Below, in pieces: positions 3,229 through 48,607 of a stretch of 54,949 nt of DNA. Within the stretch, counting starts at the first letter, position 1. Each line of letters opens with the position of its first letter. The stretch is taken from assembly GCA_029935075.1 (NCBI GenBank), contig JAOZKZ010000001.1, positions 1 through 54,949 on the forward strand. The letters run 5' to 3'. This DNA is from Campylobacterales bacterium. Its GTDB lineage: Bacteria > Campylobacterota > Campylobacteria > Campylobacterales > QNZT01. The notes under the pieces were generated by a model, which had not been told where the DNA came from, did not search any database, and saw only the letters and a program-made list of their open reading frames with translations. Position numbers and translations under genes: made by a program.

Positions 3229-3852
3229 ATGAAAGAAATGGCAAGGGATACTGGTATTCACCACAGCGGTGCTTTTGGAGGGGTAGGTGATTGGGAGTAT
3301 TACCAAAAACACCCAGAGTTTATTGTATTGGTTAATGATAAAATAAGTTCAAAAAATTACAGTATATATAAAACAAAAGGACAAAGTTACTGTACTTATT
3401 ACCTTGTCCAAGGGGATACATACAAAGGGAAGATTTCAGGAGGGATTGATAAAAATACCTTTACTATAAAAGAAACTGATTCTAAACTAAAAAGAGGGTT
3501 TTATGAAATTATGTTTTTGGTATTGTTGACCATGTATAACAAACTATTATCAGACACATCATTAAGCACACAAGCAATAAATAGTTATACCAAATTGAAT
3601 AAAAATAAAACCAAAAAGTTCAGCATAGGTGTACAAACCACCCAAGGGGATGAGGAGTTTTCTAAAGAACTTTTACTAAAAGCTGATTCAAACAGAGTGA
3701 TTATACAGGGTGATCAAAAATATCTTAATGAGTTCTTTGATGATTACTACAAAAGAATCAATCAAACGGAAAATGACAGACCATCAGCATTTAGAAAAAT
3801 GTTCTTAAATAAAGACGAAACACTAGATAGACATATGTTTGGTGTAAATTAA
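3229..3852 (+). CDS. hypothetical protein, paralog of 4132-4776
   Basis: Shares GDWEY, LVNDK.SSK.Y..YKT, GFY.IMF, LSTQAI.SY.KL and YYKRI.QTEN..PS.F.KMF with 4132-4776. Confidence 0.7.
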   Translation: MKEMARDTGIHHSGAFGGVGDWEYYQKHPEFIVLVNDKISSKNYSIYKTKGQSYCTYYLVQGDTYKGKISGGIDKNTFTIKETDSKLKRGFYEIMFLVLLTMYNKLLSDTSLSTQAINSYTKLNKNKTKKFSIGVQTTQGDEEFSKELLLKADSNRVIIQGDQKYLNEFFDDYYKRINQTENDRPSAFRKMFLNKDETLDRHMFGVN

Positions 3853-3871
3853 AAGGAATAAAAGGAATAAT

Positions 3872-4132
3872 ATGAAAGAAACAAGACAAGAAAGAAAAGC
3901 CCGAAAAAAAGCATTCATGAGCCTGACGAAGTATTACACATTGGTACAAAACGACAGGACGGGTTATGTTCAACTAACACCAAGAGAAAAGGCATTTCAG
4001 ATGATACACGGTGTAATGGAACTTGGTTACAGGGTAAACAACCTCAAAGACATATACAAAGAAGTCCAGAACCCCAGGTCAAGAAAGAGAAACCACAACT
4101 ATACCTACCCAGAAACAGGAAATAAAAAATAA
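3872..4132 (+). CDS. small basic hypothetical protein
   Basis: ORF with an aaggaataataATG RBS, lying between the two paralogs. Confidence 0.55.
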   Translation: MKETRQERKARKKAFMSLTKYYTLVQNDRTGYVQLTPREKAFQMIHGVMELGYRVNNLKDIYKEVQNPRSRKRNHNYTYPETGNKK

Positions 4133-4776
4133 TGCTAAAGGAAATGGCAGTACAGACTGGTATTTCAGGTGACGGGGCTCATGAAGGCAAGGGAGACTGG
4201 GAATATAATAAAAAGTATAATTTCATCAAACTTGTGAATGATAAATTAGGTTCCAAGTCTTATCAAGTATATAAGACCATTACCCCTGGGATTTTTACTT
4301 ATTTTTTAACCAAAGATGATAATTACAGAGGTAAAATACAAGTACAAGAAGTAAAAAACGGAATACAGATAATAGCATCACACAAAGAAAGCATAAAAGG
4401 ATTTTATCAGATAATGTTTACTATTATGTTGAAAGAATACAAAGAGATTTATTCTGATGTGATGCTTTCTACTCAGGCAATAAAAAGTTATGAAAAGTTA
4501 TCAAAAAAACATACTTTATTTAATATATATGTAAAAGAAAACCAAGAATATATACCATTTAGTAAAGAAGCCTTGTTAAGAGACAAGAACAACACGGTAG
4601 TAATTAAGGTTCAGACCAAGAATGAAAATTTCATCAAAGAACACCTCGATGAATACTATAAAAGAATACAACAAACCGAAAACAACAAACCATCTTCATT
4701 CATGAAAATGTTTATTACTAAAGACCAAGAACTGGATCAATATTTGTTCGGCAATTTAACACAAAAAGGAAAATAA
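4132..4776 (+). CDS. hypothetical protein, paralog of 3229-3852
   Basis: TAATG overlap with the preceding gene. The paralogy blocks are listed under 3229-3852. Confidence 0.7.
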   Translation: MLKEMAVQTGISGDGAHEGKGDWEYNKKYNFIKLVNDKLGSKSYQVYKTITPGIFTYFLTKDDNYRGKIQVQEVKNGIQIIASHKESIKGFYQIMFTIMLKEYKEIYSDVMLSTQAIKSYEKLSKKHTLFNIYVKENQEYIPFSKEALLRDKNNTVVIKVQTKNENFIKEHLDEYYKRIQQTENNKPSSFMKMFITKDQELDQYLFGNLTQKGK

Positions 4777-5021
4777 TGCTTTATTTCATAGAAAGAGAAA
4801 CCCAAGAGCCTTTTGAAGGCTCTATCAGAGAGTGTCAAATCAACACCAAGGTGTACGATATAGTCCCCCAAGGCAGGAATGTGGGGTTAGACAGGATTTC
4901 TGACCATGTTATCAATGACACCAGTTGGACATTTGAGAAAACAGACCCAAGGGAACAACAAATAATAAGAGAATTCGTAGAAGAGAATTTCAACAAGATG
5001 AATGATCTTCTTTTAGGCTAA
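4776..5021 (+). CDS. hypothetical protein
   Basis: TAATG overlap with the upstream gene. Confidence 0.6.
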   Translation: MLYFIERETQEPFEGSIRECQINTKVYDIVPQGRNVGLDRISDHVINDTSWTFEKTDPREQQIIREFVEENFNKMNDLLLG

Positions 5022-5025
5022 AAGA

Positions 5026-5265
5026 ATGAATACACACACAGCATCACTAAGAGTAAAAGAGAAAATGGACTCCTCAAGGATGATAGACCTTTATCAAGAC
5101 AAAGACCATTTGCATCATATGATCCAGGAGATACAAAAAATGGACCTAAGGGTTAAAAAAACAAATGAAAAATCACACAGATGGCTCGGATGGCTTCAGG
5201 CTATGGTAGTAGAACACTCCGAGATGACCCTGGAGATGATGAAAGACATAAACAAAGGCTCTTAA
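5026..5265 (+). CDS. hypothetical protein
   Basis: ORF directly following 4776-5021. Confidence 0.55.
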   Translation: MNTHTASLRVKEKMDSSRMIDLYQDKDHLHHMIQEIQKMDLRVKKTNEKSHRWLGWLQAMVVEHSEMTLEMMKDINKGS

Positions 5266-5534
5266 TGAATATAATAACACTTGGTGGTAAAAGCATCACG
5301 GCTTCTGAATACTACTATGATTGTCCGTTCGACTACTGGGACAACATGCTATACAAGGATGCAATCATTTCAAGGAGAGACAAGGCCTTTGAACTCTACA
5401 TCAGGCTTACCGAAAGTCAGCTTCTCCCTGAGCCTAAAATCCTTGCCCCAGAGGATGAGATAAGAGCCTTTAAAGTAGAAAAAGCATACAAGGATTGTCA
5501 GCAACTTTGTGATGAAAGGGGCTTGATTCTTTGA
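5265..5534 (+). CDS. hypothetical protein (start revised from 5181)
   Basis: ATG 5265 overlaps the stop of the previous gene (TAATG) and follows aaaggc plus 5 nt. The track start at 5181 would overlap 85 nt of the upstream gene. Confidence 0.55.
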   Translation: MNIITLGGKSITASEYYYDCPFDYWDNMLYKDAIISRRDKAFELYIRLTESQLLPEPKILAPEDEIRAFKVEKAYKDCQQLCDERGLIL

Positions 5535-6358
5535 ACCCTGAAACCCCTAAAGAACTAGACCAGTGGTACACCAGCCCTGAGACTGCCAGTATTTGCATAG
5601 GGTTTATGAAGCCTTATATGAAAAAGAATATCCTTGAGCCTTCTTGTGGTACAGGGGTGTTCATCAAGCTGTTGGAATCAATGGGTTATAATATCAAGGG
5701 ATTTGACATAGACCCCAAGACCCCAGAAGGTATAAAGAAGGATTTCTTCTTGGTCAAAAAGGATGACATTTTAAAGGACTCGGTAACCATAGGGAACCCT
5801 CCTTATGGTAAAAAAGGCAAATTAGCCCAAGGGTTTATTAACCATGCCTTGAGTCTCTCTGATACAGTAGGGTTTATTGTGCCTTTGACTTTAAGTACTT
5901 CTTACACTGCCCAGAAACACATCAACGAAAATGCTTCCTTAATCCTTGAGGAACCTCTTCCAAAGAATAGTTTTGTGTTCAAGGGTAAAACAAAGGATGT
6001 AAAAAGTGTTTTTCAAATTTGGAGTTTAGTAACAAACCAAAGAGACCTAAGGCTCAAAAAACCCCAGACACAGCATCCAGATTTTGAGACCAGGATTTAC
6101 AACAAGACCCAAGGTGCCTTGAAATATCTCGATTGGGACTGGGACATTGCTATTAAAAGAAATACAAAAAACGGGGAGTTTATTACCGAAGGGAAAGCCT
6201 CGGCTGATTACCATTGGATGCTCGTTAAGGTAAAGAACAAAGAAATCCTAAAGAGGTTTCTTAAGATAGACTACACCAGGATAAACGATAACAAGATGAC
6301 AGCAGGGATGGGGAAGGCTGATATTGTTAAGGCTTATTTAGAGGTTAAGAAATTTTAA
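5531..6358 (+). CDS. N6-adenine DNA methyltransferase (gamma-class-like)
   Basis: QWYTSPE, motif I EPSCGTGVF, motif IV GNPPYG. The TTG start overlaps the upstream stop (TTGA). The conserved QWYTSPE lies upstream of the first ATG, which supports the TTG start. Confidence 0.8.
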   Translation: MNPETPKELDQWYTSPETASICIGFMKPYMKKNILEPSCGTGVFIKLLESMGYNIKGFDIDPKTPEGIKKDFFLVKKDDILKDSVTIGNPPYGKKGKLAQGFINHALSLSDTVGFIVPLTLSTSYTAQKHINENASLILEEPLPKNSFVFKGKTKDVKSVFQIWSLVTNQRDLRLKKPQTQHPDFETRIYNKTQGALKYLDWDWDIAIKRNTKNGEFITEGKASADYHWMLVKVKNKEILKRFLKIDYTRINDNKMTAGMGKADIVKAYLEVKKF

Positions 6359-7736
6359 CCCATCCTATATTTTCTAAGTTCTTTACATTTTGTACTTTAA
6401 CTGTTGGGTTTAAGCCAAATACACGATTTTGGTATCTTAAATGTAAATCTATCTGGGCATAATTAGGGGAAATAGAAACCTCTTGTGCTTCAGTGGTTAT
6501 TTTTATGGTAAACATAACACCAGCAACACCCTTCCCCATCTTATAGTTTATGTCTGTTTTTTTTACGATTAGCTTATTCTCACTAAATTCATTAGAAGAC
6601 GGGACATAGTATAGTTCTTTTAACGATTGATAAAAATATGGATTATCAGCAATAGCCAGTTTCTGCATAATCTCAGAATTTGTTGAGAACGATTCAAAGA
6701 CCATTTCAGATATATTCTTCGCTAGTGTATTATAAACCAAATCCGATAACTTTTTAAATTCACTGCTATTTTGAATAGCGTAATTTCCAAACACAGCATA
6801 ATGTGGGTTCGTTGTTGCTATATTGGTCTTTTGTTTTAAATTTGTTTCGGTAAATTTGTATTTACCTTCTGGGGTTTTATCGTCATCAGGATCAACTAAT
6901 TTTTCTTTACCTGTCCCTGATTTGTATTTTATATAAAATACTTTTTCTTCTTTATTGTACATTATATAGTAATGAGAATCTTCTGGGGTTTCACTACTAA
7001 ATGTAAATTTTTTCCCAGGTTCTTTTTTTACTAATTTTATAGCACTCGTGACTACCTTTTTTTTCCAATTAAACCAATAAGAATCTCCCGAGGATTGCCC
7101 TGTTTCTCTATCTCGACTATATTTTGATATGGCATCTTCACCTCTGTTTGTTGTTAGTTTTAAAGAATCTGGTGACAGGCTTTTTAATGTTACGGCATTT
7201 ACCGATTTAACAGATATCCCAGCAACAACAGTATCAAACCCTACATCATCTGGTGCTGCTGTGCCACTTGCATTTTGCAACCCTGCCCAAGAAAATTGAC
7301 TAGGTTTGGTTTTTTTAGTTTTTGTTAAATATTCAGTGACTTTTAGTCTAAATGTTTCTGAAATGCCAAAAGATGACATAAATAATTTTTCATCATAAAA
7401 CCCATTTAATGCTTCGGCTATTAGAGAAAGGGTCAACTCAGAGTTGTTTATCTTTTTCTCATCAAAATAATCTTTTAAATACTCCGTTGTGAATATTATA
7501 TCTTTTGATTTTTTAGCTTCTTTTAAGTTGTTTTTTTCAAAACCTTTGAAGTCACCGTTTTGAGCATATGCTAATAAACAAGGAATTTCAGAGTTGTATT
7601 TTGTTTTGTCTGATGTTCCTCCTTCGTTTATACTCTCTTCGTTTATACTCTCTTCGTTTGAACATCCAAAAAAATACTCTGCTAAAAAAACACTCTTATG
7701 TTTACATTCCTCACTTAAATATTCCTTAAACCCCAT
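6345..7736 (-). CDS. hypothetical 463-aa protein, the only convincing minus-strand gene
   Basis: Long ORF. On the minus strand the RBS is aaaggc plus 5 nt before the ATG, and a TATAAATA box lies upstream. The N-terminus MGFKEYLSE matches the shared leader. It carries an in-frame NEESI NEESI NE repeat. Its 3' end overlaps the methyltransferase gene by 14 nt. Confidence 0.75.
   Translation of the reverse strand: MGFKEYLSEECKHKSVFLAEYFFGCSNEESINEESINEGGTSDKTKYNSEIPCLLAYAQNGDFKGFEKNNLKEAKKSKDIIFTTEYLKDYFDEKKINNSELTLSLIAEALNGFYDEKLFMSSFGISETFRLKVTEYLTKTKKTKPSQFSWAGLQNASGTAAPDDVGFDTVVAGISVKSVNAVTLKSLSPDSLKLTTNRGEDAISKYSRDRETGQSSGDSYWFNWKKKVVTSAIKLVKKEPGKKFTFSSETPEDSHYYIMYNKEEKVFYIKYKSGTGKEKLVDPDDDKTPEGKYKFTETNLKQKTNIATTNPHYAVFGNYAIQNSSEFKKLSDLVYNTLAKNISEMVFESFSTNSEIMQKLAIADNPYFYQSLKELYYVPSSNEFSENKLIVKKTDINYKMGKGVAGVMFTIKITTEAQEVSISPNYAQIDLHLRYQNRVFGLNPTVKVQNVKNLENIGWVKIS
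7622..7659. repeat. 15-bp tandem repeat, 2.5 copies (cttcgtttatactct)
   Basis: Read at 7622-7636 and 7637-7651, with a partial copy at 7652-7659. On the minus strand it encodes NEESINEESINE in gene 6345-7736. Confidence 0.9.
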
Positions 7737-18899: not shown

Positions 18900-19715
18900 A
18901 TGAAATTTAAAGAATACCTAAAAGACCCTAAAGACCTCAATGAGTACATAAACAACAACTCAATGGAGAAAGAATGGAGTCTTATTCTTAAGGGTTGGAT
19001 TCCATTAAGACCAAGCCTTTTGGACTCTATGGAGATAGACAAGGTGTATCATGTGACTGATATAGCGAACTACGACAACCTAATCAAATATCAAAACCAG
19101 AAAAAGCAAATTTCCACTTTCACTAAAGGTAAAGAATGGCTGGCTTCTGGTGCCCGGACAAGGGGTGGTGTATTGGTAGAACTTAGGGGTAAAACGGTAT
19201 TCGTTTCGCCTAGTGACCTTTTCAGTGCCTTGTCAAGAAATGGTTACAGATGGATACAACCATCATTAGGTATGAAAAGATCAAGGGCTTTTGCCACCAA
19301 GGTTCAAGAAAAAGTATACCAGTATCTAAGAGACCAGACTAATTCCAACAAGATTCCTAAAAAAGTAATGGTAGGTTTGTTGTCAACCGCTGGCATAAAC
19401 CCTTTGTATAACCTTGTAGACGAACTCCCAAAAAATGAAAAAAGAGATTTTATTAAGTTTTACTTTGACCTGATAAAAAAGGAAATGAATAAACAAGTAA
19501 AAGACGATATCTTTAAGGATTTATTAGAACTCCAGGATGGAAATATATCCAATGAGGTGCTTTTGCATGACTACAAAATCATAAAGACATGGAGCATAGA
19601 CCAAGAATACGAAGACGAGAACAACCTTATACATAATTACATAGAAAAGAATGGTATCAATTACCAAGGCATGATAAAAAGAACCGTCCTTAATGACATA
19701 AAGAAGCTAAAATGA
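18900..19715 (+). CDS. divergent relative of the 7779-14439 family (retains His)
   Basis: MKFKEYLKD leader; VYHVTD; KYQNQKKQISTFTKG; GVLVELRGKTV; NGYRWI; FYFDLIKKE; SNEVLLHDYKI. Confidence 0.7.
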   Translation: MKFKEYLKDPKDLNEYINNNSMEKEWSLILKGWIPLRPSLLDSMEIDKVYHVTDIANYDNLIKYQNQKKQISTFTKGKEWLASGARTRGGVLVELRGKTVFVSPSDLFSALSRNGYRWIQPSLGMKRSRAFATKVQEKVYQYLRDQTNSNKIPKKVMVGLLSTAGINPLYNLVDELPKNEKRDFIKFYFDLIKKEMNKQVKDDIFKDLLELQDGNISNEVLLHDYKIIKTWSIDQEYEDENNLIHNYIEKNGINYQGMIKRTVLNDIKKLK

Positions 19716-20287
19716 AATTTAAAGAATACCTGAAACAAGACCTAAAAGACTTAAATGAATCAACCTTGACTATTTACCACGGGGATAATCACGAAACCAA
19801 AAAAATAGACCCTAAGTTGATGATGAACGGTAATGTTCAAGAAGGAATAGGGATATATTTCGGTAACCTTGTGGTAGCCAAATCTTATGGCAAAGATATA
19901 GTCCAGGCTGAGGTGAACCAAAAGGATTTTAAACCAAGCAGAGGAACAGTCAAAAGAAACCTTAAATTAGCATACAATATACTAAGAGACCTTTGGCATA
20001 TTGACCCTGAGAGTATGTATTATCTTATTACCGATTGGGTAGAAATAGTAGAAATAGAAGACATTACTCATGATGACATAAGACTATTAGCCCAAAAAAT
20101 GGGTTCTGATGAGGTCAGGAATTTTCAGATTACCCTTGCTGAGGCATTTGGTGTAGAGAATTTTGTAAAAATATGGAATAAAGTATACCCAAAGAACACA
20201 GGGACTTATGATAAAGATACTGGTTTTTATGCTATAATAAACCCTAAGGTACCTTTAGTTCCTTTTAAGGAACAAGATGAAATTTAA
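19712..20287 (+). CDS. small protein with PARP-like H...Y...Y motif spacing (candidate ART fold)
   Basis: MKFKEYLKQ leader; LTIYHG (His23), GIGIYFG (Tyr49), AKSYG (Tyr59). Confidence 0.65.
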   Translation: MKFKEYLKQDLKDLNESTLTIYHGDNHETKKIDPKLMMNGNVQEGIGIYFGNLVVAKSYGKDIVQAEVNQKDFKPSRGTVKRNLKLAYNILRDLWHIDPESMYYLITDWVEIVEIEDITHDDIRLLAQKMGSDEVRNFQITLAEAFGVENFVKIWNKVYPKNTGTYDKDTGFYAIINPKVPLVPFKEQDEI

Positions 20288-21047
20288 AGAATACCTGAAA
20301 GAGACTGAGATGAATGAGTACACCAAACACAAATTATCCGAGCTTATAAGCCTCAGGGCTATCCCTCTTTCTGAACCTATGATGAAAAGATTAGGATATT
20401 ATTGGGAAGACACCGTGGTGTATCACCTTACTAACTCCAAGAACCTCCCTGGGATGACAAAAGACCAGAACAAAAAAGCCCATATTTCTACATTTTCTAA
20501 GGGTGGTGCCGAGCTTGCCCGTTTACCATCTCAACCTGATGTACTTCTTAGGCTCAAGGGTGACGAGGTAATCCAAGGAAAATCTGATATATGGAGCCTT
20601 ACAGACACTCAGAATAGAAGATGGCTGGATATTAAAACGGATTCCAAAGGCGGTGAAACACTGTATAATTTTCTGAATGGGGTCTTACAGAAAGTCCTCA
20701 ACCAAAATGACTTAAACATAGAGCTTCAAAGAGGGAAGTCATTCGGTGGTGACAGAAACCTTGAGGTAGAGCTTAATAAGCTCACTAAAAAGCAAAGAAG
20801 TAAAATATATGGTATGTATATAGAAGAGGTAGAAAGATTCTTGAACTCTAGCTACAAGTACCTGAATACTTATCTTAATAACCTCAATCAGTTCCATTAC
20901 AATGAAATCATCCTAACGAATTGGGAAATCCTTGATGTAAAAAGCATAGAGATAGAATCCCCTTTGACTGTTAAGATGTGTGCCGAGCTTGGGTTGGTTT
21001 ATTCAGGGGTTATTCCAAGGAAGAGACTCTCTGGTTTGGTGATTTAG
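20277..21047 (+). CDS. divergent relative of the 7779-14439 family (retains His)
   Basis: MKFKEYLKE leader; VYHLTN; DQNKKAHISTFSKG; LLRLKGDEV; NRRWLD; YNEIILTNWEI. Confidence 0.7.
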   Translation: MKFKEYLKETEMNEYTKHKLSELISLRAIPLSEPMMKRLGYYWEDTVVYHLTNSKNLPGMTKDQNKKAHISTFSKGGAELARLPSQPDVLLRLKGDEVIQGKSDIWSLTDTQNRRWLDIKTDSKGGETLYNFLNGVLQKVLNQNDLNIELQRGKSFGGDRNLEVELNKLTKKQRSKIYGMYIEEVERFLNSSYKYLNTYLNNLNQFHYNEIILTNWEILDVKSIEIESPLTVKMCAELGLVYSGVIPRKRLSGLVI

Positions 21048-25560: not shown

Positions 25561-25801
25561 CACCGCTTTACCTGATGATTTGACACAAGCTGAACCAATT
25601 TGGGCAAGGTGTTTTGTATTTTTGATTAAAAGTGGTCAGCCTTTCTTACAAACCATAGTATGGATGAATGACAATTTCAGTGATATATATAGACAAAAAG
25701 AGACAGACATAGAAGTATACGAATATATATTTGACCATTTCAAAATACAGTATAAGAAAGACCCTAATATAAATAAAACCAAAGACAAAGGAAAGACATG
25801 A
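25553..25801 (+). CDS. hypothetical protein
   Basis: 8-nt overlap with the upstream gene. Confidence 0.55.
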   Translation: MFNTALPDDLTQAEPIWARCFVFLIKSGQPFLQTIVWMNDNFSDIYRQKETDIEVYEYIFDHFKIQYKKDPNINKTKDKGKT

Positions 25802-26668: not shown

Positions 26669-28273
26669 TTGATAGAATTAGTAGAAGGAAAAGAACACAT
26701 TGTTATAAAAAGGAACGGGACACCAGAGCCTTATAACGAACACAAAATGAAAAAAGTCCTTATGTGGGCTTGTAATGATAAAGAGATGTATGTCAAAGAA
26801 CTCTTAAATGACATAGAACTTAAAGTGTTCAATAAAATATCCATACAGAAATTATTTAACGAGGTGATTGAAACCTGTGCCAATAAGATTTCGGATATGT
26901 ACCCAGTCTGGGACGAGGTAGCAAAACGGTTGTATATCCAAAAGATTTACAAAGAAACCTGGGGTATAAAGAGAACACAATACCCTTATTATGGTGATGT
27001 CCTAAGTAAAGGCACCCAGTACGGGGTGTATGATTCAGATGTTATTGATACCTTTACCGAAGAAGAAATCAAGATGCTGGATGAAGCCATCAAACCAGAA
27101 AGAGATTTTGATCTGACTTACCTAGGCTTAAGGGTTTTTATTGACAAGCAAAGCAAACACTACACGGTTACAAAACCCTTGGAGCTACCTCAACACGGGT
27201 TCATGAGACTGGCTTTATTTGCCTTTTATAAAGAAATTGATCGTATTCCTTTGATTATACAAAGATATAATGACCTGAGCTTATTGATGTATTCAGAAGC
27301 AACACCTAAATGGATGAACTCTTTGTCGAAGAACCCTCAGATGGCTTCGTGCGTGGTCTCGAAGCTACCCGATAACTCATGGGGGATTAATAAGACCATT
27401 TCTAACCTTGGGTTGTTTTCTAAACACGGTGGGGGCTTGGCATGTGATGTATCAAGCATCAGGGCTACTGGCTCAAAAATAGGTAAAAACGGGGTCTCAA
27501 GCGGACCTATTCCATTTATCAAAATGATAGAATCTACCGTGAATGCCTATAACCAAAACGGCTCAAGACCAGGGGCATGTGCTGTTTACTTCTCTTGGTG
27601 GCATTATGATTCACCAGAGATGTTAGAGCTAAAAGAAGAAGGGGGTACAGAAGACCGCAGAGCAAGGAACCTTAAGTATGGCTTAAAGTGGAATGAACTG
27701 TTCACTCAAAGAATACTTGATAACAAAGATATTACTCTTTTTGACCCCAAGGAAACCCCTGAGTTATTGACCACTCACGGGGAAGAGTTCGACAAATGGT
27801 ACTGCTTCTATGAGAACAAAGATCGTATCAAGAAAAGAAAAATGAAAGCAACCGAACTAGCATTTAGCATCACCAAGCAAAGAATAGAAACAGGCAATAT
27901 CTATATATTTTTTGAAGAGAATACCCAGAATCAGAACATCTTTAAAGAGCAGATTTTTAGCTCAAATTTATGTGTATCTGGCGATACTAAAATTAGTATA
28001 GAAACTAATGATGAAATAAAAATGATTGAAATACAAGATTTAGAATATTATATCAATACAGAAGTAAAGGTATTATCAATGAACACAAAAACATCAAAAA
28101 AATCTTATAAAAAGATAACTGATTTTGCTATGACTTCAAAAAAGGCTAAAGTGATTAAAATTACACAAGAAAATAATACTATAACATGTACACCAGAACA
28201 TAAAATATATACAAAAAGAGGTTATATAGAAGCTCAGTTTTTACAAGAAAATGATGAGATAATTTATGAATAA
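26669..28273 (+). CDS. nrdA: ribonucleotide reductase alpha, N-terminal fragment (434-aa N-extein) fused to a 100-aa split-intein N-half
   Basis: TTG start after aaagga plus 5 nt. ATP-cone-like VIKRNGTPEPYNEHKM. The extein ends at SSNL. Cys435 (27971) starts CVSGDTKI (intein block A), followed by TCTPEH (block B), and a stop comes after 100 intein residues. Confidence 0.9.
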   Translation: MIELVEGKEHIVIKRNGTPEPYNEHKMKKVLMWACNDKEMYVKELLNDIELKVFNKISIQKLFNEVIETCANKISDMYPVWDEVAKRLYIQKIYKETWGIKRTQYPYYGDVLSKGTQYGVYDSDVIDTFTEEEIKMLDEAIKPERDFDLTYLGLRVFIDKQSKHYTVTKPLELPQHGFMRLALFAFYKEIDRIPLIIQRYNDLSLLMYSEATPKWMNSLSKNPQMASCVVSKLPDNSWGINKTISNLGLFSKHGGGLACDVSSIRATGSKIGKNGVSSGPIPFIKMIESTVNAYNQNGSRPGACAVYFSWWHYDSPEMLELKEEGGTEDRRARNLKYGLKWNELFTQRILDNKDITLFDPKETPELLTTHGEEFDKWYCFYENKDRIKKRKMKATELAFSITKQRIETGNIYIFFEENTQNQNIFKEQIFSSNLCVSGDTKISIETNDEIKMIEIQDLEYYINTEVKVLSMNTKTSKKSYKKITDFAMTSKKAKVIKITQENNTITCTPEHKIYTKRGYIEAQFLQENDEIIYE

Positions 28274-29157
28274 TTATATGAAAGAAGTCCAAAATATTTG
28301 TTTAACAGCATGGATAAGACCTAAACAAGATGATATAGATTATGAAAAACATCATTATTGTCCTCGGTCTTTAGGAGGATCAGATGATGAAAATAATATA
28401 GTAGATTTGACATTACAAGAGCATTTTAAAGTCCATTTGTTGCTAGCCCAACATTATATTGAAGTAAAAGATAAAAGCAAGTCTGATAGTATGATAAGTG
28501 CTTGCTGGATGATGTCAAACAGAGGTAAATATAATGAAAAATATATGGCAACTCCTGAAGAGTATGAATTTTTAAGAAAAAAACACAAAGCAATAATGAA
28601 AACAAAAATGTCAAAAACAATGACAGGTAAAATGCCTGTATATGATATTAACGATGACGATAGAAAAATTTTTCATGCTTCTGTAAACGACCCTATGGTA
28701 AAAAGTGGAGAGTGGGTACACCATACAAAAGGATCGAAAACATCAAAAGAAACACTAAAAAAATTAAGTGATGCCTTTTCTGGTGTGAAAAATCCAAGAT
28801 ATTCCGGGATAACCGATAACGAAATAATTGAATATAGTTTAGAATTATTTAATATTTTAGGGTTCATTCCTGCATTAAGTAATGTTAGAAGATGGACAAA
28901 ATTAAAATATAATGTTGATATACCTAAACATTTTACTAAATTTAGATTCCCTGATAAATCGTGGAAAGAGCAAATGGAAGAACAAACAAACATGACATAT
29001 AACCGTTATCAACGAGGTAAAAATAGATTAAAAATTAGAGAAGTATTGAAGGAACAAAATGTTAAAAATTGAAATACAAGAAAAAGAAATCCCTGTTTAT
29101 GATATAACGGTTCAAGACAACGAAAACTTTTTTGCTAATAATTTATTAGTTCATAAC
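27971..29157 (+). mobile_element. split mini-intein (Int-N 27971-28270, Int-C 29059-29157) with a free-standing HNH homing endonuclease gene between the halves
   Basis: Blocks A and B are at the end of the first ORF. Blocks F and G (VYDITVQDNENFFANN, LLVHN then +1 Cys at 29158) are at the start of the third ORF. Joining the exteins restores the RNR motif SSNL-CGEISIP. Confidence 0.85.
28266..29072 (+). CDS. HNH homing endonuclease
   Basis: KHHYCPRSLGGSDDENNIVDLTLQEHFKVH (HNH motif). It overlaps both nrdA fragments by a few nucleotides. Confidence 0.8.
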   Translation: MNNYMKEVQNICLTAWIRPKQDDIDYEKHHYCPRSLGGSDDENNIVDLTLQEHFKVHLLLAQHYIEVKDKSKSDSMISACWMMSNRGKYNEKYMATPEEYEFLRKKHKAIMKTKMSKTMTGKMPVYDINDDDRKIFHASVNDPMVKSGEWVHHTKGSKTSKETLKKLSDAFSGVKNPRYSGITDNEIIEYSLELFNILGFIPALSNVRRWTKLKYNVDIPKHFTKFRFPDKSWKEQMEEQTNMTYNRYQRGKNRLKIREVLKEQNVKN

Positions 29158-30108
29158 TGCGGAGAAATATCCATTCCTGCTATTAGTCCAAAAGAACCAA
29201 GGGCAGTCCTTTCCAAAGATTTTGATAATAACATCAAGCTTAAAGAGTCCTTTGACCCAGGGATGATTGCCCTGTGTAACCTGAGTTCAATAAATGTAAT
29301 CAAATGGATAACACTTTCCGATAAAAAGAAAGAAAAAATGACCTATAATCTTTTAAGGGCTTCTGATAATCTCTTGGATTATGCTTTTTATCCGTCCAAA
29401 GAAGGCGAGGTTTTCAATAAAAACTACAGGGCTATAGGGATAGGGATTACTAACTATGCCCAGTTTTTAGCCCAGGGTAAGCTGAAGACCAAAAGCAAAG
29501 AAGCACTTAAAGAGACCAATGACCTCTTGGAGGATATTTACTACTTCTTGATGAAAGGGAGTATAAAATTAGCCAAAGAAAGGGGCAGATATTCGGAGTA
29601 TTTCAGCTCTGAGTATTCCAAAGGAAATCTTATTTTTGACTTGTATCAGGGGCCTTATAATTTTAGGTTAAATAGAGATTGGAAAGAAATAAGAGAAGAC
29701 CTGAAGCAATCGGGAGCAAGGTTCAGCACATTAATGGCTATAGCCCCCACCGCTACGAGTTCACTTATACTAAATTCGACCGAGGGCATAGAGCCACCAC
29801 GGCAATTAGTCTCAATGAAAACAGGGACTTATACATGTAAGCAATTAGTCCCTAATATAAAGAAACTAAGACAAGATTATGAACTAGCCTGGGATATTGA
29901 CTCTTTTGATATGATTAACCTGAGTTCAGCACGGCAAAGGTTCATAGACCAAGGTCAGTCTTTGTCCTTGTATTATAAAGACAGGAACGAGTCTGCCACA
30001 GAGGTACTAAAAGATATTATATATGCCGAGAAAATGGGACTAAAGAGTCTTTATTATGCATTTACATTACAGCAAGATATAGAAGAGTGTTTGTCTTGTT
30101 CAGTTTAG
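29059..30108 (+). CDS. nrdA: 33-aa split-intein C-half fused to ribonucleotide reductase alpha C-terminal fragment (316-aa C-extein)
   Basis: RBS is aaggaacaaaATG. It starts MLKIEIQEKEIPVYDITVQDNENFFANNLLVHN, then CGEISIP. The C-terminal redox pair is ECLSCSV. Confidence 0.9.
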   Translation: MLKIEIQEKEIPVYDITVQDNENFFANNLLVHNCGEISIPAISPKEPRAVLSKDFDNNIKLKESFDPGMIALCNLSSINVIKWITLSDKKKEKMTYNLLRASDNLLDYAFYPSKEGEVFNKNYRAIGIGITNYAQFLAQGKLKTKSKEALKETNDLLEDIYYFLMKGSIKLAKERGRYSEYFSSEYSKGNLIFDLYQGPYNFRLNRDWKEIREDLKQSGARFSTLMAIAPTATSSLILNSTEGIEPPRQLVSMKTGTYTCKQLVPNIKKLRQDYELAWDIDSFDMINLSSARQRFIDQGQSLSLYYKDRNESATEVLKDIIYAEKMGLKSLYYAFTLQQDIEECLSCSV

Positions 30109-30126: not shown

Positions 30127-31215
30127 ATGAAGTGTGAAAAAATTATATGTGTAGACGAGTTACCAAAAGAGACCTTTAAGTTATTTTTTGGTGATACTGG
30201 TGGGATGCTTAGGGTAGACAAAACAGATTACCCTGTCTTGATGAACCAATTTAAACAAGGCTTTAGTAAAGTATGGATGTACACGGCAGTGGATTTCAAG
30301 AGTGATATCACAGGCTGGGACAAACTAGACGAGGTATCCCAGAGGATATTCCTTTTGAATAATTCATATCAGTTACTTATGGATGCCGGGGTAGTCAATA
30401 TCTATAATGTCTTGGCTATGCTAAGCACCAATACCGAACTTAAGCTTAACTATCAATATATAGCCCAAAATGAAAGTATACATGCGGCTAGTTATAGTTA
30501 CGGGCTAAGCCAGATGTTTGGTTCAGAAGCAGAGGATAAAACTAATATAGTATATGAAGACGAGTTCATTAAATCAAGAATGAATGATGAAGTAGACTAT
30601 TCAGGTGAGCTTTACCAAAGACTAATCCTTGATAAAGAAGAAGGACCAGAAGCCAAAAAAATACTCTTTAAGGCGATAGTGGCTACTTATGTCCTTGAGC
30701 ATATTAAGTTTCCTTTTAGTTTCTTTGCCACATGGAGCCTAAATAAGACTAATGATAATGCTATTCAAGGGTTCAGTATGCTTCTGAAGTTAATAGCCCA
30801 GGATGAACTAGACTACCATGTACCAGTGAATAAAACAGTCCTTAAAATCCTTAGAGAACCGAGGCAAAACTTCACCGAAGAATGGTCCAAGGAGTTCGTT
30901 TACTGGTATGTAGAAAAGGTAACAAAAGCAGAAAAAGAGTGGAGTGATTATCTTCTCAAGGATGGTGAAGTCCCTGGGTTTAACAAGAAAATTAACAACA
31001 ATTTCATAGAATACTTTGCGGATAAGACCCTAAAAGACCTTGGTTTAGAGCCTTTGTATAATGCCAAGAAAACAGACACGGTAGATTGGTATAATGAATA
31101 CAGGACTATAAACAACCAAAATGCTTCCTTACAAGAAATATCCAATATAAACTACAACAAAGGGGTAGTAAAAGATGACATCCTGAGTAACCTTGGAATG
31201 CTTAGAGAAATATGA
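30127..31215 (+). CDS. nrdB: ribonucleotide reductase beta subunit
   Basis: Diiron ligand motifs QNESIHAASYSY and VLEHIKFPFSFF. It lies adjacent to nrdA. Confidence 0.9.
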   Translation: MKCEKIICVDELPKETFKLFFGDTGGMLRVDKTDYPVLMNQFKQGFSKVWMYTAVDFKSDITGWDKLDEVSQRIFLLNNSYQLLMDAGVVNIYNVLAMLSTNTELKLNYQYIAQNESIHAASYSYGLSQMFGSEAEDKTNIVYEDEFIKSRMNDEVDYSGELYQRLILDKEEGPEAKKILFKAIVATYVLEHIKFPFSFFATWSLNKTNDNAIQGFSMLLKLIAQDELDYHVPVNKTVLKILREPRQNFTEEWSKEFVYWYVEKVTKAEKEWSDYLLKDGEVPGFNKKINNNFIEYFADKTLKDLGLEPLYNAKKTDTVDWYNEYRTINNQNASLQEISNINYNKGVVKDDILSNLGMLREI

Positions 31216-45209: not shown

Positions 45210-47039
45210 ATGGCTCAAACTATAAAACTCAAGCGGTCAAATACCGCTGATAATATCCCTGAAACTACACAAGTAGACTTCGGGGAAATGGCTATCAATA
45301 CAAGAGATGGTCTTTTATGGACTATACAAGACACCGATGGTGCAGGGACCAAGGGATTGATCACTGTACTCACCGAGAATAATTCAATACAAGACCTGAG
45401 TGATGTTCACTCAATGTCCCCTAGTGATGGTGATGTTCTGACATATGATGACACTAATGGTTGGCAAGCGGAAACACTCGACTCATCAGGTTCGCCAGTA
45501 GTCACTGTAGTTGATTTTACCGCTGATGCTTCACAGGACACATTTGTTACTAATTATAATACTGATAATGTAGAAGTTTATTCAAGTGGTGTGAAATTAA
45601 GATCAACCGAATACACTGCTACAAATGGCACCTCTGTTGTATTAGATCAAGAGTTAGACATAGACACATGGGTTCAAGTCCGTTCTAATACCGATTCGCC
45701 TGGTGCTACTGTTCCTTGGGGTTCAGTTACTGGAACCCCTGATAATATTTCAGGCTATGGTATTACTGATGCTATGGCTTCGACTGGTGATTTAGCCTTA
45801 GTCACCACAGGAACAATAACCACGGGTACTTGGGAAGCAACCCCTGTAACAGATACTTATATTTCTAGTGCTAGCACATGGAGCAATAAACAAGACCCAG
45901 AAACCACAATCTCGGGTTATGGAATTACTGATGCTTATGACCTTGTTTCGAGTGATAGTGTTTGTGATGTTGATTACAATGCTATGAAAATCGAATATAA
46001 TGTATCTGGTTCTGATGCTTGTACTGGAACACAATATCATAATGGACTTTTGATAGATGTTAATAATAATGCTACTGGTGGTACTGGTGCCAATGAACAC
46101 ATAGTACAGGGCATATGGGTTGATTATAATGGATTAAATAGCACCACTTCAGACAAAGTAAGATGTTTTTATGCAGATTGTAAAAGTAACCAAACCGCAG
46201 GGACTACTGAATACCTTTCAGGGTCTTTTAATAGAATAATAGGAGCAAATACAGGTGGGAATATATCCAATGTTTACGGATGCTATTCAACAAGTATAGA
46301 TCTAAATGAAGGAACAGTGTCGCACCTCGGGGCTGGTCATTTTTTGTGTCAAAAACAATCTACTGGTACCGCTGTTACTGCTACAGCCACAGGGGTACAC
46401 GGTGAAGTACAAATAGATGAAGGAGCAGGGGTAATAACCTCAGCCGTGGCGGTAAATGCTATTATTGATAATAATGTTACTACTTCTCCAGAAGGTGCGA
46501 TAGGGACTGCTTATTTGTTCCAAGGGACTTATGAGGGGACTATTCCTACTAATGCTTATGGGATTTATATAGGCTCTGCTGTTGATAATTACTTAGGTGG
46601 TAATTTAGAAGTCAATACAAATTTAGATATTGGTGGAGATTTATCAGTCACTGGAGAGGTAACAGGGAATTTAGATATTGGTGGAGATTTATCAGTCACT
46701 GGAGAGGTAACAGGGGAAGTTAATTTTGCTGGGGTATCTACATATAATTATACCAGTACCAGCACAAACATTGATTTATCCAATGGTAACAGTTTCTACA
46801 TAAACTGTACTGCTAATCTTACACAAACCTTTAGTAATATACCCTCTTCTGGTAAAACTGTTATTATTACACTAGAATTATATGATGCTGGGGACTTTAC
46901 GATTACATGGGACTCCTCAATAAATTGGGCAAACGGGACAGTGCCTACTTTTACATCAGATGGAACAGATATAGTGACCATGTACACCAGAGATTCTGGG
47001 ACAAACTGGCATGCTTCTGCTCAATTAGGATACGCATGA
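45210..47039 (+). CDS. tail fibre protein
   Basis: N-terminus TIKLKRSNTADNIPETTQVDFGEMAINTRDGLLW. It shares a mid domain with 49198 and 50729 and a C-terminal domain with 42989 and 50729. Confidence 0.8.
   Translation: MAQTIKLKRSNTADNIPETTQVDFGEMAINTRDGLLWTIQDTDGAGTKGLITVLTENNSIQDLSDVHSMSPSDGDVLTYDDTNGWQAETLDSSGSPVVTVVDFTADASQDTFVTNYNTDNVEVYSSGVKLRSTEYTATNGTSVVLDQELDIDTWVQVRSNTDSPGATVPWGSVTGTPDNISGYGITDAMASTGDLALVTTGTITTGTWEATPVTDTYISSASTWSNKQDPETTISGYGITDAYDLVSSDSVCDVDYNAMKIEYNVSGSDACTGTQYHNGLLIDVNNNATGGTGANEHIVQGIWVDYNGLNSTTSDKVRCFYADCKSNQTAGTTEYLSGSFNRIIGANTGGNISNVYGCYSTSIDLNEGTVSHLGAGHFLCQKQSTGTAVTATATGVHGEVQIDEGAGVITSAVAVNAIIDNNVTTSPEGAIGTAYLFQGTYEGTIPTNAYGIYIGSAVDNYLGGNLEVNTNLDIGGDLSVTGEVTGNLDIGGDLSVTGEVTGEVNFAGVSTYNYTSTSTNIDLSNGNSFYINCTANLTQTFSNIPSSGKTVIITLELYDAGDFTITWDSSINWANGTVPTFTSDGTDIVTMYTRDSGTNWHASAQLGYA
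46620..46715 (+). repeat. perfect 48-bp tandem duplication inside fibre gene 45210-47039
   Basis: aatttagatattggtggagatttatcagtcactggagaggtaacaggg occurs at 46620-46667 and again at 46668-46715. It encodes NLDIGGDLSVTGEVTG twice. Confidence 0.95.
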
Positions 47040-48607
47040 TTAATGCTATGATGATATCAGGAAGAGGTGGCATAGAGGGTGCATGGATTCTAAGAAACTT
47101 CAGCACAGGTCAAGAAGAAACAAGCACGGCTAATGTAGACCCTAGTGGATTATATTTTAGCACAGACGGCACTAAGATGTACACATCTGATCAGCAAGAT
47201 TATATTTACCAGTATGATTTAAGTACACCTTGGGATATAATCACTAGCAGTTATAATTCTGTGAATGTTTCTACACAAGATAGTACTGCTCAAGGTTTGA
47301 CTTTTAGTGCAGATGGATCAAAGATGTATGAAATAGGGCAAAATCAAGACAAGATATATCAATACGATTTATCTACAGACTGGGACCTAAGTACGGCTGA
47401 TTATGCTACTAACTCGGTAAATATTAATACCCAAGATGCTACACCGAGGGGTGTGTTTTTTAAACCAGATGGCTCAAGGATGTATGAGACTGGGACTGGG
47501 GGTGATAAGGTTTACCAATACGATTTAGGTACTAATTGGGACTTAAGTACGGCTGACTATGCTACTGACTCGGTAAACATAGTTTGTGCTACCACAGACC
47601 CACAAGACTTATTTTTTAAACCAGATGGCTCAAGAATGTGGACTGTACATACTAATGATTTAATTTACCAGTACGATCTAGGGACTAACTGGGATGTATC
47701 AACGGCTGATTATGCTACTAACTCGGTAAATATTGATGGTATTACTGACAATATTACTGGTTTGTTTTTTAGCCCTGATGGATTTATTCTTTACACAGTA
47801 GATACTACTAATGAAATGGTTTATCAAATTTATCTTAAAACACCATGGGATATAGAGTATTTCTACCCTGGGATGGAAATGGACCCAGAGGGGACAAATG
47901 TTCAAGGTCTTTGGTTTAAACCTGATGGCACAAGAATGTATAGCACAGATATGGATGATGATAATATTTACCAGTATGATTTAAGTACAGCTTGGGATAT
48001 AACTTCGGCTGTTTATAACTCTGTTACTATTTCTACAGCGGCAGGTGGGCATCAAAATATAGTATTTAGCACAGACGGGTCAAAGATGTACTCAATAGAC
48101 AAGGGGGATTACATATATCAATACGATTTAAGTACTAATTGGGACTTAAGTACGGCTGATTATGCTACTAACTCGGTAAAATTAAGCACCGAAAGCTCAG
48201 AGCCCAATGGATTATTTTTTAAACCAGATGGTTCAAGGATGTATATCTCGGATACACTTTCTGATTTGATTTACCAATACGATTTATCTACAGACTGGGA
48301 CTTAAGTACGGCTGATTATGCTACTAACTCGGTAAACAAAGCCACACAAGGCACATTTACGCAACAAATATTTTTTAAACCAGACGGGCTAATAATGTAT
48401 GAAGCAGACTCTGCGTCAGACATGATGCACCAATGGACACTAAGTACACCATGGGACTTAAGTACCGCTTCTATAGATACGGAGTCTGCAGTACCTGTGG
48501 ATAATGCTATACAAAGTCTATTTTTTAAACCTGATGGTTCAGTCATGTATCAATCAGACAACCTAAATAACAAAATATATCAACTTAAAATAAGAGGAAA
48601 AGAATGA
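47036..48607 (+). CDS. beta-propeller repeat protein, about 10 repeats (start revised from 46907)
   Basis: ATGA overlap with the fibre gene. The ~50-aa repeat is GLFFKPDGSRMY....D.IYQYDLST.WDLSTADYATNSVN, where the F[KS]PDG element is PD40/TolB-like. Confidence 0.75.
   Translation: MINAMMISGRGGIEGAWILRNFSTGQEETSTANVDPSGLYFSTDGTKMYTSDQQDYIYQYDLSTPWDIITSSYNSVNVSTQDSTAQGLTFSADGSKMYEIGQNQDKIYQYDLSTDWDLSTADYATNSVNINTQDATPRGVFFKPDGSRMYETGTGGDKVYQYDLGTNWDLSTADYATDSVNIVCATTDPQDLFFKPDGSRMWTVHTNDLIYQYDLGTNWDVSTADYATNSVNIDGITDNITGLFFSPDGFILYTVDTTNEMVYQIYLKTPWDIEYFYPGMEMDPEGTNVQGLWFKPDGTRMYSTDMDDDNIYQYDLSTAWDITSAVYNSVTISTAAGGHQNIVFSTDGSKMYSIDKGDYIYQYDLSTNWDLSTADYATNSVKLSTESSEPNGLFFKPDGSRMYISDTLSDLIYQYDLSTDWDLSTADYATNSVNKATQGTFTQQIFFKPDGLIMYEADSASDMMHQWTLSTPWDLSTASIDTESAVPVDNAIQSLFFKPDGSVMYQSDNLNNKIYQLKIRGKE

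Follow-up and report, generated by a model that had tools for sequence, protein, structure and literature searches.

How might a phage obtain a working ribonucleotide reductase (RNR) large subunit from an nrdA gene that is broken at the codon for the catalytic cysteine? The question is raised by contig JAOZKZ010000001.1 (assembly GCA_029935075.1), deposited as DNA of a Campylobacterales bacterium, all 54,949 nucleotides of which were analysed and are called the window hereafter. In the window, nrdA is carried by two open reading frames (ORFs), nrdA-N and nrdA-C, each bearing one part of an intein at the break, with an endonuclease ORF between them. We consider it very probable that this phage nrdA is a fractured gene, divided by a split intein with an endonuclease gene between its halves, and that trans-splicing leads to an intact NrdA.

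The break in nrdA lies at the codon for the catalytic cysteine

The initial annotation, made from the DNA letters alone, had proposed that nrdA is fractured at its catalytic cysteine, and all of its coordinates and sequences proved correct (Table 1). The intein N-part reads CVSGDTKISIE...TCTPEH...ITCTPEHKIYTKRGYIEAQFLQENDEIIYE and ends in IIYE. Residues 1 to 33 of nrdA-C (MLKIEIQEKEIPVYDITVQDNENFFANNLLVHN) form the C-part and are followed by CGEISIP, the codon of the +1 Cys being TGC at 29158-29160. The proposed lengths of exactly 100 and 33 residues were recovered alike from the ORF map and the raw sequence. The cassette inserted between the codons of Leu438 and Cys439 (Escherichia coli numbering) measures 1187 bp and is AT-rich. 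As had been noticed, the free-standing middle ORF overlaps both of its neighbors: it starts within the last codons of nrdA-N (ATGAATAA), overlapping them by 8 nt, and its 3' end overlaps nrdA-C by 14 nt. The Shine-Dalgarno (SD) sequence of nrdA-C, in keeping with the ribosome-binding site announced for the third ORF, is located inside the endonuclease ORF.

Table 1. Features of the nrdA-nrdB locus, in window coordinates
Feature	Position	Strand	Description
nrdA-N ORF	26669-28273	+	534 aa; stop TAA 28271-28273
nrdA N-extein	26669-27970	+	434 aa; ATP-cone, all-alpha domain, first half of RNR barrel; end ...KEQIFSSNL
Intein N-part	27971-28270	+	100 aa; Cys1 (block A), block B C-T74-P-E-H77; then TAA
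Endonuclease ORF	28266-29072	+	268 aa; free-standing gene of a predicted MobE-like HNH homing endonuclease
SD sequence GAAGGA of nrdA-C	29048-29053	+	within the endonuclease ORF, at its 3' end; 5 nt upstream of the ATG; read from the sequence
nrdA-C ORF	29059-30108	+	349 aa; own SD sequence and ATG
Intein C-part	29059-29157	+	33 aa; block F VYDITVQDNENFFAN, block G NLLVHN, end His32-Asn33
nrdA C-extein	29158-30108	+	316 aa plus stop; first residue is the +1 Cys
nrdB, RNR small subunit	30127-31215	+	Pfam Ribonuc_red_sm, 1.1e-31; start 18 nt past nrdA-C

An error of sequencing or assembly could in principle create such a layout, the true gene then having either an uninterrupted intein that includes an HNH domain in frame or a mini-intein. 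The locus is indeed known from a single source contig, the only one in NCBI and Logan on which its exact proteins occur, with no second copy in databases. However, nrdA-N, the endonuclease ORF, and nrdA-C lie in three different frames (2, 0, and 1, respectively), and reading through the stop at 28271 leads to the next stop after 16 codons, so that a single sequencing error cannot explain the layout. Additionally, the endonuclease begins at a start of its own, and a separate SD sequence and ATG serve nrdA-C. The organization is identical in independently sequenced phages and contigs described below, including the M-L/I-K-I start of the C-part, and the 14-nt overlap is repeated in two relatives. 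We thus regard an artefact as extremely unlikely, and the stop at 28271, for which the initial annotation had allowed such an error as a refutation, as genuine.

We also considered whether the endonuclease gene could sit in a group I intron within the intein coding sequence, RNA splicing then restoring a contiguous mini-intein. Phage RNR genes often harbor group I introns with HNH endonucleases, as exemplified by T4 nrdB and I-TevIII. However, Rfam models found nothing at E ≤ 1 within 27500-29600, and across the whole window no hit reached the gathering score. Moreover, the interval from the nrdA-N stop to the nrdA-C start is filled entirely by the endonuclease ORF, leaving no room for an intron core. 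The probability of an intron is, in our view, close to nil.

The two halves carry a complete set of splicing residues

Both halves scored above the curated NCBIfam cut-offs, with 36.8 bits for TIGR01445 (intein_Nterm; cut-off, 24.5) on nrdA-N residues 435-515 and 29.4 bits for TIGR01443 (intein_Cterm; cut-off, 15.6) on nrdA-C residues 12-34. Their assignment as intein halves, judged from these profile scores, is thus beyond chance. Similarly, the Pfam model Intein_splicing is covered at positions 6-93 by the N-part and at 125-155 by the C-part, and the split into 100 and 33 residues falls at the canonical endonuclease-insertion position.

Comparison of the joined 133-residue intein with solved structures, in line with the suggested comparison with split-intein families, gave the NrdJ-1 split intein as the best match (8UBS, E = 7e-11). 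It was accompanied by gp41-1 (6QAZ, E = 2.7e-5), Spl DnaX, and Ssp DnaB, with PDB entries 7CFV and 1MI8 among the matches. A HINT fold of the joined halves finds indirect support in these similarities to 8UBS, 7CFV, 1MI8, and 6QAZ, all of them solved inteins. The set of class-1 splicing residues is complete, comprising Cys1, T74-P-E-H77, the block F aspartate (D15 of the C-part, VYDITV), His32-Asn33, and the +1 Cys. In 21 distinct N-parts, that of the window and 20 others, cysteine is the first residue wherever the N terminus is intact, and C-T-x-x-H is present in all of them. The 19 distinct C-parts end in HN, followed by Cys in 18 and by Ser in 1. In an index of 5.8 billion proteins, where a search reliant on shared words was made with the N-part of the window, one match only was returned; profile searches of the retrieved loci yielded far more.

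Joining the exteins restores a class Ia NrdA

When the exteins were joined in silico, the product had exactly 750 aa and 86.9 kDa, in good agreement with the predicted size of about 750 aa. Its residues 11-744 align with E. coli R1 (1RLR) over positions 6-740 of the latter (E = 1.9e-97). The predicted junction peptide is ...IFSSNLCGEISIPAISPK, and here the rebuilt motif fSSNL-CGEISIP that the initial annotation had foreseen aligns with rQSNL-C439-LEIALPT of E. coli, indicating that the +1 Cys is the thiyl-radical cysteine. The equivalents of N437 and E441 (Asn of SSNL and Glu of CGE) are conserved, those of C225 (QMASCVV), C462 (IALCNLSS), and Y730/Y731 (KSLYYAF) are kept, and the C terminus harbors a pair of cysteines (...ECLSCSV). 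By Pfam, the N-extein comprises ATP-cone, Ribonuc_red_lgN, and positions 1-213 of Ribonuc_red_lgC, and the C-extein continues with positions 223-522 of the latter. The downstream nrdB is intact and lies on the same strand. On the basis of these residues and domains, the gene is an otherwise intact class Ia nrdA, encoding an RNR alpha subunit of that class.

This bears on the possibility that the cassette destroyed nrdA, leaving a decaying pseudogene in a phage that relies on the RNR of its host. Such a fate has been considered elsewhere, since the nrdA of Campylobacter phage CPt10 is annotated in GenBank as disrupted and degeneration was suggested there by Dwivedi et al. 2013 (PMC3653736). Moreover, one locus related to the window (L097, see below) has no cassette, lacks about 13 extein codons including those of SSNL, and carries a frameshift. 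In the window, however, both extein halves are full length and stop-free and keep every catalytic residue, and nrdB is intact. Furthermore, the fracture persists in lineages whose exteins are 21 to 71% identical yet intact, and intact exteins across diverged fractured lineages point to purifying selection after the fracture. We therefore find decay improbable. From the intact catalytic residues and from relatives with experimental evidence of splicing, namely, NrdA-2 (Pinto et al. 2020, PMC7090010) and NrdJ-1 (structure 8UBS), we infer that the phage RNR would depend on trans-splicing, as had been claimed at the outset.

The CPt10 locus itself (L001, 2493-6560), annotated as a disrupted pseudogene, contains a split intein one residue downstream of the site used in the window, with the junctions TNLC/CLAGDT...VHN/CEISVP (slashes mark splice junctions or insertion points in this text). 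Between the halves are two hypothetical ORFs without a recognizable endonuclease motif, and a second, contiguous mini-intein follows further on. The nrdA of CPt10 may be functional rather than degenerate.

The middle gene is predicted to encode a MobE-like HNH endonuclease

A search against PHROGs assigned the middle ORF to phrog_655, "homing endonuclease" (7.5e-25), and to two further HNH/homing-endonuclease families. Its HNH core spans residues 27-57 (nt 28344-28436), and nine positions (E27, H29, H30, P33, G37, N44, E52, H53, and H57) are invariant in 13 relatives. The family profile matched HNH motifs of the PDB, with values of 1.8e-4 for Cas8f-HNH, 2.2e-4 for a group II intron maturase, and 3.9e-3 for McrA. 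T4 MobE was matched with an hhalign probability of 99.8% (E = 2.3e-27, 101 columns) and, by BLASTP, with 47% identity over 59 aa (E = 4e-14). T4 MobE shares the homologous HNH domain and the association with the nrdA-nrdB region; it differs in being a 141-aa protein encoded between genes, outside any intein, and in having no C-terminal modules. The endonuclease of the window continues after the HNH domain with a second conserved module, GKMPV..D...SGEWVHHTKG...NPRYSGIT, which is common to its closer relatives.

An AlphaFold model of the endonuclease gave a pLDDT of 85-92 for the N-domain, with strands at residues 26-30 and 45-49 and a helix at 50-66. The endonuclease found at the same position in a related locus (L098) passes the Pfam HNH threshold (PF01844, 29.5 bits versus a gathering score of 21.4). 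Among 1.84 billion cluster representatives, 6673 relatives were found at E ≤ 1e-3, yet only 149 at E ≤ 1e-10 and 5 at E ≤ 1e-30. Taken together, the profile evidence identifies the product of the middle gene as a putative MobE-like HNH enzyme. It would not take part in splicing and probably promotes its own spread during co-infection.

The same cassette occurs in other phages and in metagenomes

Neither a blastn search of GenBank phages with 26669-30108 nor a search of IMG/VR for close relatives of the C-extein gave a match. A tblastn search of GenBank phages with the extein-intein junction, in turn, led to Yersinia phage vB_YenM_TG1 (NC_028820), where the genes concerned are annotated as "ribonucleotide reductase large subunit," "homing endonuclease," and "NrdA-like...large subunit." The upstream half of TG1 reads ...KQSNL/CLSGES...ICTPDHKIYTE...DILVEV-stop and is followed by an HNH gene with SGEWIHHTKG and then by VLKIEQLPLTIEVYDITVEDTHCFFADDILVHN/CAEIAIPT. 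TG1 thus resembles the window in its N-part (101 aa), its MobE-like HNH gene with the SGEW(V/I)HHTKG module, its C-part (33 aa), and its junctions (SNL/C...HN/CAEI). Identity between the two loci is 40% for the N-part, 58% for the C-part, and 27 to 29% for the endonuclease (E = 1e-13 for the 27% alignment). However, TG1 belongs to another phage lineage (Tevenvirinae), its exteins are only 31 to 37% identical to those of the window, and its endonuclease gene does not overlap nrdA-N. A literature search found no paper on the TG1 nrdA locus or its split intein in the searchable library.

We scanned IMG/VR with an alignment of the endonuclease subfamily and searched the ORFs of the best 80 loci with profiles. 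An intein N-part directly upstream and/or a C-part directly downstream of the endonuclease was present in 18 of these 80 loci (about 13 distinct sequences). Their junctions follow the patterns ...SNL/C...(96-119 aa)-stop and M(L/I)(K/T)I...VHN/C(x)EI. In three of them (L059, L063, and L090), the register is shifted one residue downstream, N(L/I)C/C...HN/(C/S)EI. Further copies of the cassette were found in L004, L006, L007, L094, L098, and L101 and in a contig of a metagenome-assembled genome (MAG) binned as Prevotella. When a large protein collection was searched with nrdA-C, about 60 of the 120 relatives listed had an intein match, most of them being about 350 aa long, the size expected for intein-bearing nrdA-C fragments. 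The seven nearest nrdA-C relatives among the matches listed are 58 to 61% identical. Three loci that have otherwise diverged share an overlap of exactly 14 nt between the endonuclease gene and the nrdA fragment after it: the window (29059-29072), L101 (4261-4274), and the intein-less Aeromonas phage Aeh1 (L100, 42447-42460).

Variants of the arrangement were also encountered. In Klebsiella phage KP13-7 (L003), the annotation breaks nrdA into several pieces, which surround a split intein that uses the site of the window. The MAG contig DMYZ01000221.1 (L093), binned as Prevotella sp., has an RNR large-subunit gene fractured at two sites, the middle fragment bearing an intein C-part at its start and an intein N-part at its end. 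Two fractured genes lie on one 10-kb contig (L007, ENA ERZ22277477 NODE_2136): at 1-2394, an intein divides a UvsW-like helicase gene, its halves flanking a 264-aa HNH-type ORF, and at 3726-6570, an RNR large-subunit gene carries the MobE-like cassette.

Relation to known fractured and split genes

The initial annotation had likened the locus to fractured genes described from metagenomes, and its layout is indeed that reported by Dassa et al. 2009 (PMC2677866). Their fractured genes included seven NrdA loci of the GOS metagenome (NrdA-1 to NrdA-7), and in their model, the stop and start signals come from a free-standing endonuclease gene that has entered a mini-intein. Like those NrdA loci, the window combines a class I RNR alpha gene, an integration point directly N-terminal to the thiyl-radical cysteine, and a phage origin. 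It also shares with the fractured genes of that study the place where the intein is split, which is the endonuclease-insertion position, an endonuclease gene that stands free between the halves, and a 3' overlap with the downstream start. We thus find in the window two adjacent ORFs on the same strand, the two intein halves, the intervening endonuclease gene, and its 3' overlap. The loci of Dassa et al. contained GIY-YIG or Vsr-like endonucleases only, HNH enzymes being predicted as possible (PMC2677866), whereas that of the window is MobE-like HNH. A hairpin and/or a late-promoter motif upstream of the endonuclease start was reported in 15 of 16 loci, as a frequent and not a defining trait (PMC2677866); in the window, neither was found at that position.

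This difference belongs to a number of results that weigh against a functional fractured gene with an HNH endonuclease. No hairpin was detected upstream of the endonuclease gene (fold z, 0.58), and the late-promoter motif TATAAATA is absent near the endonuclease start, the nearest copy being at 25768. A single-sequence AlphaFold model of the joined intein, computed with no alignment, reached a pLDDT of 31 only. The N-part and the C-part have net charges of -1 and -4, respectively, unlike the simple pattern of opposite charges that some split inteins are described as having. As to the endonuclease, a Foldseek search of the PDB with its model gave a best E value of 0.28, HNH proteins appearing only among weak matches, and Pfam reported no HNH match but only a sub-threshold NUMOD3. 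The HNH identity first assigned to the middle ORF thus stands by the profile comparisons and the homology to MobE; it found no backing in Pfam.

A different outcome of a similar insertion is known from Aeh1, where nrdA-a is followed by mobE and then by nrdA-b, in the same order (Friedrich 2007; Crona 2011, PMC3045599). There, the nrdA gene split by the MobE endonuclease works as two chains with essential tails (PMC3045599). The two NrdA fragments of the window could likewise assemble non-covalently, the intein halves acting as unspliced interaction tails. The layouts are very similar, since in both a MobE-family HNH gene is inserted near the active site and overlaps the downstream fragment by 14 nt, and the N-terminal HNH domains are 31% identical over 97 aa. 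However, Aeh1 has no intein, its split lies about 10 residues downstream of the catalytic cysteine, and its separate fragments bear short charged tails that score about 0 bits against intein profiles. Its MobE also lacks the SGEWVHHTKG module. Furthermore, the splicing residues are conserved in about 20 diverged relatives of the window intein, which would be unexpected if binding alone mattered. Judging from the R1 structure, an unspliced HINT domain of 133 residues would sit on the radical-cysteine loop in the center of the barrel. We consider non-covalent assembly very unlikely and retain trans-splicing as the preferred interpretation.

Crona et al. speculated that mobE and the tails of Aeh1 derive from such a split intein (PMC3045599). 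We looked for the tails as degenerate remnants of the intein family of the window and detected no similarity to intein profiles.

With NrdJ-1 (8UBS) and gp41-1 (6QAZ), the intein of the window has in common class-1 chemistry, a similar split position, and the C terminus ...NFFAN(D/N)(I/L)LVHN. They differ in their host proteins or insertion registers, NrdJ-1 being inserted one residue further downstream, and beyond blocks B, F, and G there is little identity. Of the trans-splicing inteins known, NrdJ-1 and gp41-1 rank with the fastest (PMC7090010). The NrdA-2 split intein, from a GOS fractured nrdA with the junction SNL/CNE, splices to about 75 to 98% in cis and also works in trans (Pinto et al. 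2020, PMC7090010).

The arrangement itself has therefore been published since 2009 and is common in public data. An HNH gene between split-intein halves is likewise already published: the Pseudomonas jumbo phage MIJ3 harbors a free-standing one between the halves of a PolB intein (PMC6892783), which differs from the present case in its host gene (DNA polymerase B), in the first intein residue (Ser), and in the +1 residue (Ser). As for a MobE-like cassette in nrdA, present in deposited genomes such as TG1, we found no paper describing it in the searchable library. The window locus fits the published model of split-intein origin and is a well-preserved case of two selfish elements, intein and homing-endonuclease gene, that are nested where an essential phage enzyme has its most conserved codon. 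With it, a third class of endonuclease, that of MobE-type HNH genes, is documented for fractured nrdA genes, and TG1, the 18 of 80 IMG/VR loci, and several metagenome contigs show that the cassette is widespread. The pair of 100 and 33 residues is among the shortest in the family and could be a candidate orthogonal split intein for protein ligation, like NrdJ-1, gp41-1, and NrdA-2.

The cassette appears foreign, and its endonuclease exchangeable

The GC content is 0.233 in the intein N-part, 0.290 in the endonuclease gene, and 0.242 in the C-part, compared to 0.386 and 0.380 in the N- and C-exteins. We compared the cassette among phages of the window lineage, whose proteins start with MIELVEG... 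and whose N-exteins are 68 to 71% identical. In L095 and L096, the thiyl-radical cysteine site is empty (...YSSNLCAEIML; ...KIYSSNLCAEIMLST...), and an intein-less site modeled on L095 would read ...TCAAGTAATCTA/TGCGCAGAGATA.... L094 has a cassette with a 321-aa MobE-like endonuclease. L098 (3497-4471) carries a split intein of the window type at the unchanged site with a different HNH endonuclease, the one that reaches 29.5 bits with Pfam HNH; its C terminus has repeated I-HmuI NUMOD-like motifs, and it shares only the HNH core with that of the window. This suggests that the endonuclease was replaced within a resident split intein.

Across four loci, similarity of the endonuclease to that of the window ran opposite to similarity of the exteins. 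The endonucleases of L101 and L006 are 46 and 42% identical, with N- and C-exteins of 43% and 36% in the former and 24% and 33% in the latter. L094 and L098 have endonucleases of only 30 and 27% identity next to exteins of 71% and 58% (L094) and of 68% and 58% (L098). At distant loci (TG1, L004, L006, L007, and CPt10), the N-parts are 33 to 47%, the C-parts 53 to 64%, and the exteins 24 to 40% identical to those of the window. With its low GC content, the empty site in L095, and the discordance between endonuclease and exteins, the cassette appears to be foreign and mobile, and homing is predicted.

These data lead us to a tentative proposal, which we consider possible and rather doubtful as a whole. 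The split intein at the RNR thiyl-radical cysteine would be a long-lived "landing pad" for the repeated exchange of free-standing HNH genes. The endonuclease would home into split or mini inteins that are endonuclease-free or differently occupied and not into intein-less nrdA, and SGEWVHHTKG would be a DNA-binding domain specialized for the junction of intein and RNR. The intein and the endonuclease would in that case be two selfish elements that collaborate and yet can be separated. The proposal rests on the higher endonuclease identity (46% and 42%) to loci with exteins of 24 to 43% than to loci with exteins of 58 to 71% (27 to 30%) and on the HNH endonuclease of L098, which has a different C-terminal domain in a split intein of the window type. 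The turnover of inteins and endonucleases could be studied with the comparison set, which includes an empty site, an exchanged endonuclease, and RNR genes that are fractured twice.

Other rearrangements were seen in further loci of the window lineage. In L095 (2636-6288; GCA_029935855.1, JAPOGU010000006.1, a 290-kb contig) and L096, nrdA is broken about 120 residues upstream of the thiyl-radical cysteine site. The break in L095 lies between AYNQNG/CVSRNTY... and ...FYVIHN/SRPGA. Its N-fragment has about 300 extra residues with no Pfam match and a match only to phrog_22677 (function unknown), and its C-fragment has about 140 intein-like residues; the whole resembles a split intein of atypical layout to which an insert is fused. 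L097 (3243-5472; JGI 3300033146, a 43-kb contig) has an nrdA gene with neither intein nor endonuclease gene. The loss of extein codons and the frameshift mentioned above (...FFEESVQV-stop / VCKCNEIYL...) reflect either an imprecise (destructive) deletion of the cassette or an assembly artefact.

Predicted expression and splicing of the locus

We infer splicing, endonuclease activity, and the endonuclease target at the window locus from sequence, and the following course of events is predicted. nrdA-N, the endonuclease gene, nrdA-C, and nrdB would be co-transcribed, because the genes overlap or are tightly spaced on one strand, with no promoter or terminator signal above chance; indeed, sigma-70-like promoters and terminators showed no excess over chance around the locus. 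Translation of the endonuclease may be coupled to the termination of nrdA-N, and the 3' end of its gene would supply the SD sequence and the ATG of the C-extein ORF. The resulting precursors of 62.3 kDa (nrdA-N) and 40.2 kDa (nrdA-C) would associate through the intein halves into a HINT domain. Cys1 would then perform the N-S acyl shift, the +1 Cys, the future thiyl-radical cysteine, would attack, and Asn33 would cyclize as the peptide bond forms that joins the leucine to the catalytic cysteine. The expected outcome is a seamless NrdA of 750 aa and 86.9 kDa that partners NrdB. In co-infecting relatives, nrdA alleles that have no endonuclease gene are the most likely target of the endonuclease, and repair would copy the endonuclease gene into them with or without the intein.

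Phage context and other features of the window

The window is part of the genome of an uncultivated phage with a low GC content (about 35%), probably a myovirus. It encodes an RnlA-like RNA ligase and tail-fibre attachment protein, an ATP-dependent DNA ligase, a tail-fibre-like protein, and a DUF6267 protein, and an NlpC/P60 peptidase gene lies directly upstream of nrdA. Searches of the window for tRNAs and with Rfam gave no matches.

Eight consecutive head-to-tail paralogous ORFs of 259 to 300 aa occupy 7779-14439 on the + strand, with 31 to 53% identity (E = 1e-35 to 1e-96). Searches with three members against Pfam and two against PHROGs gave no match. Two more distant members follow downstream, at 18900-19715 and 20277-21047. 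Finally, two ORFs of 609 and 566 aa on the + strand, 45210-47039 and 46907-48607, overlap by 133 nt, and the first has a tail-fibre-like C terminus. A frameshift, either programmed or due to error, could account for this, as could two genes that truly overlap.

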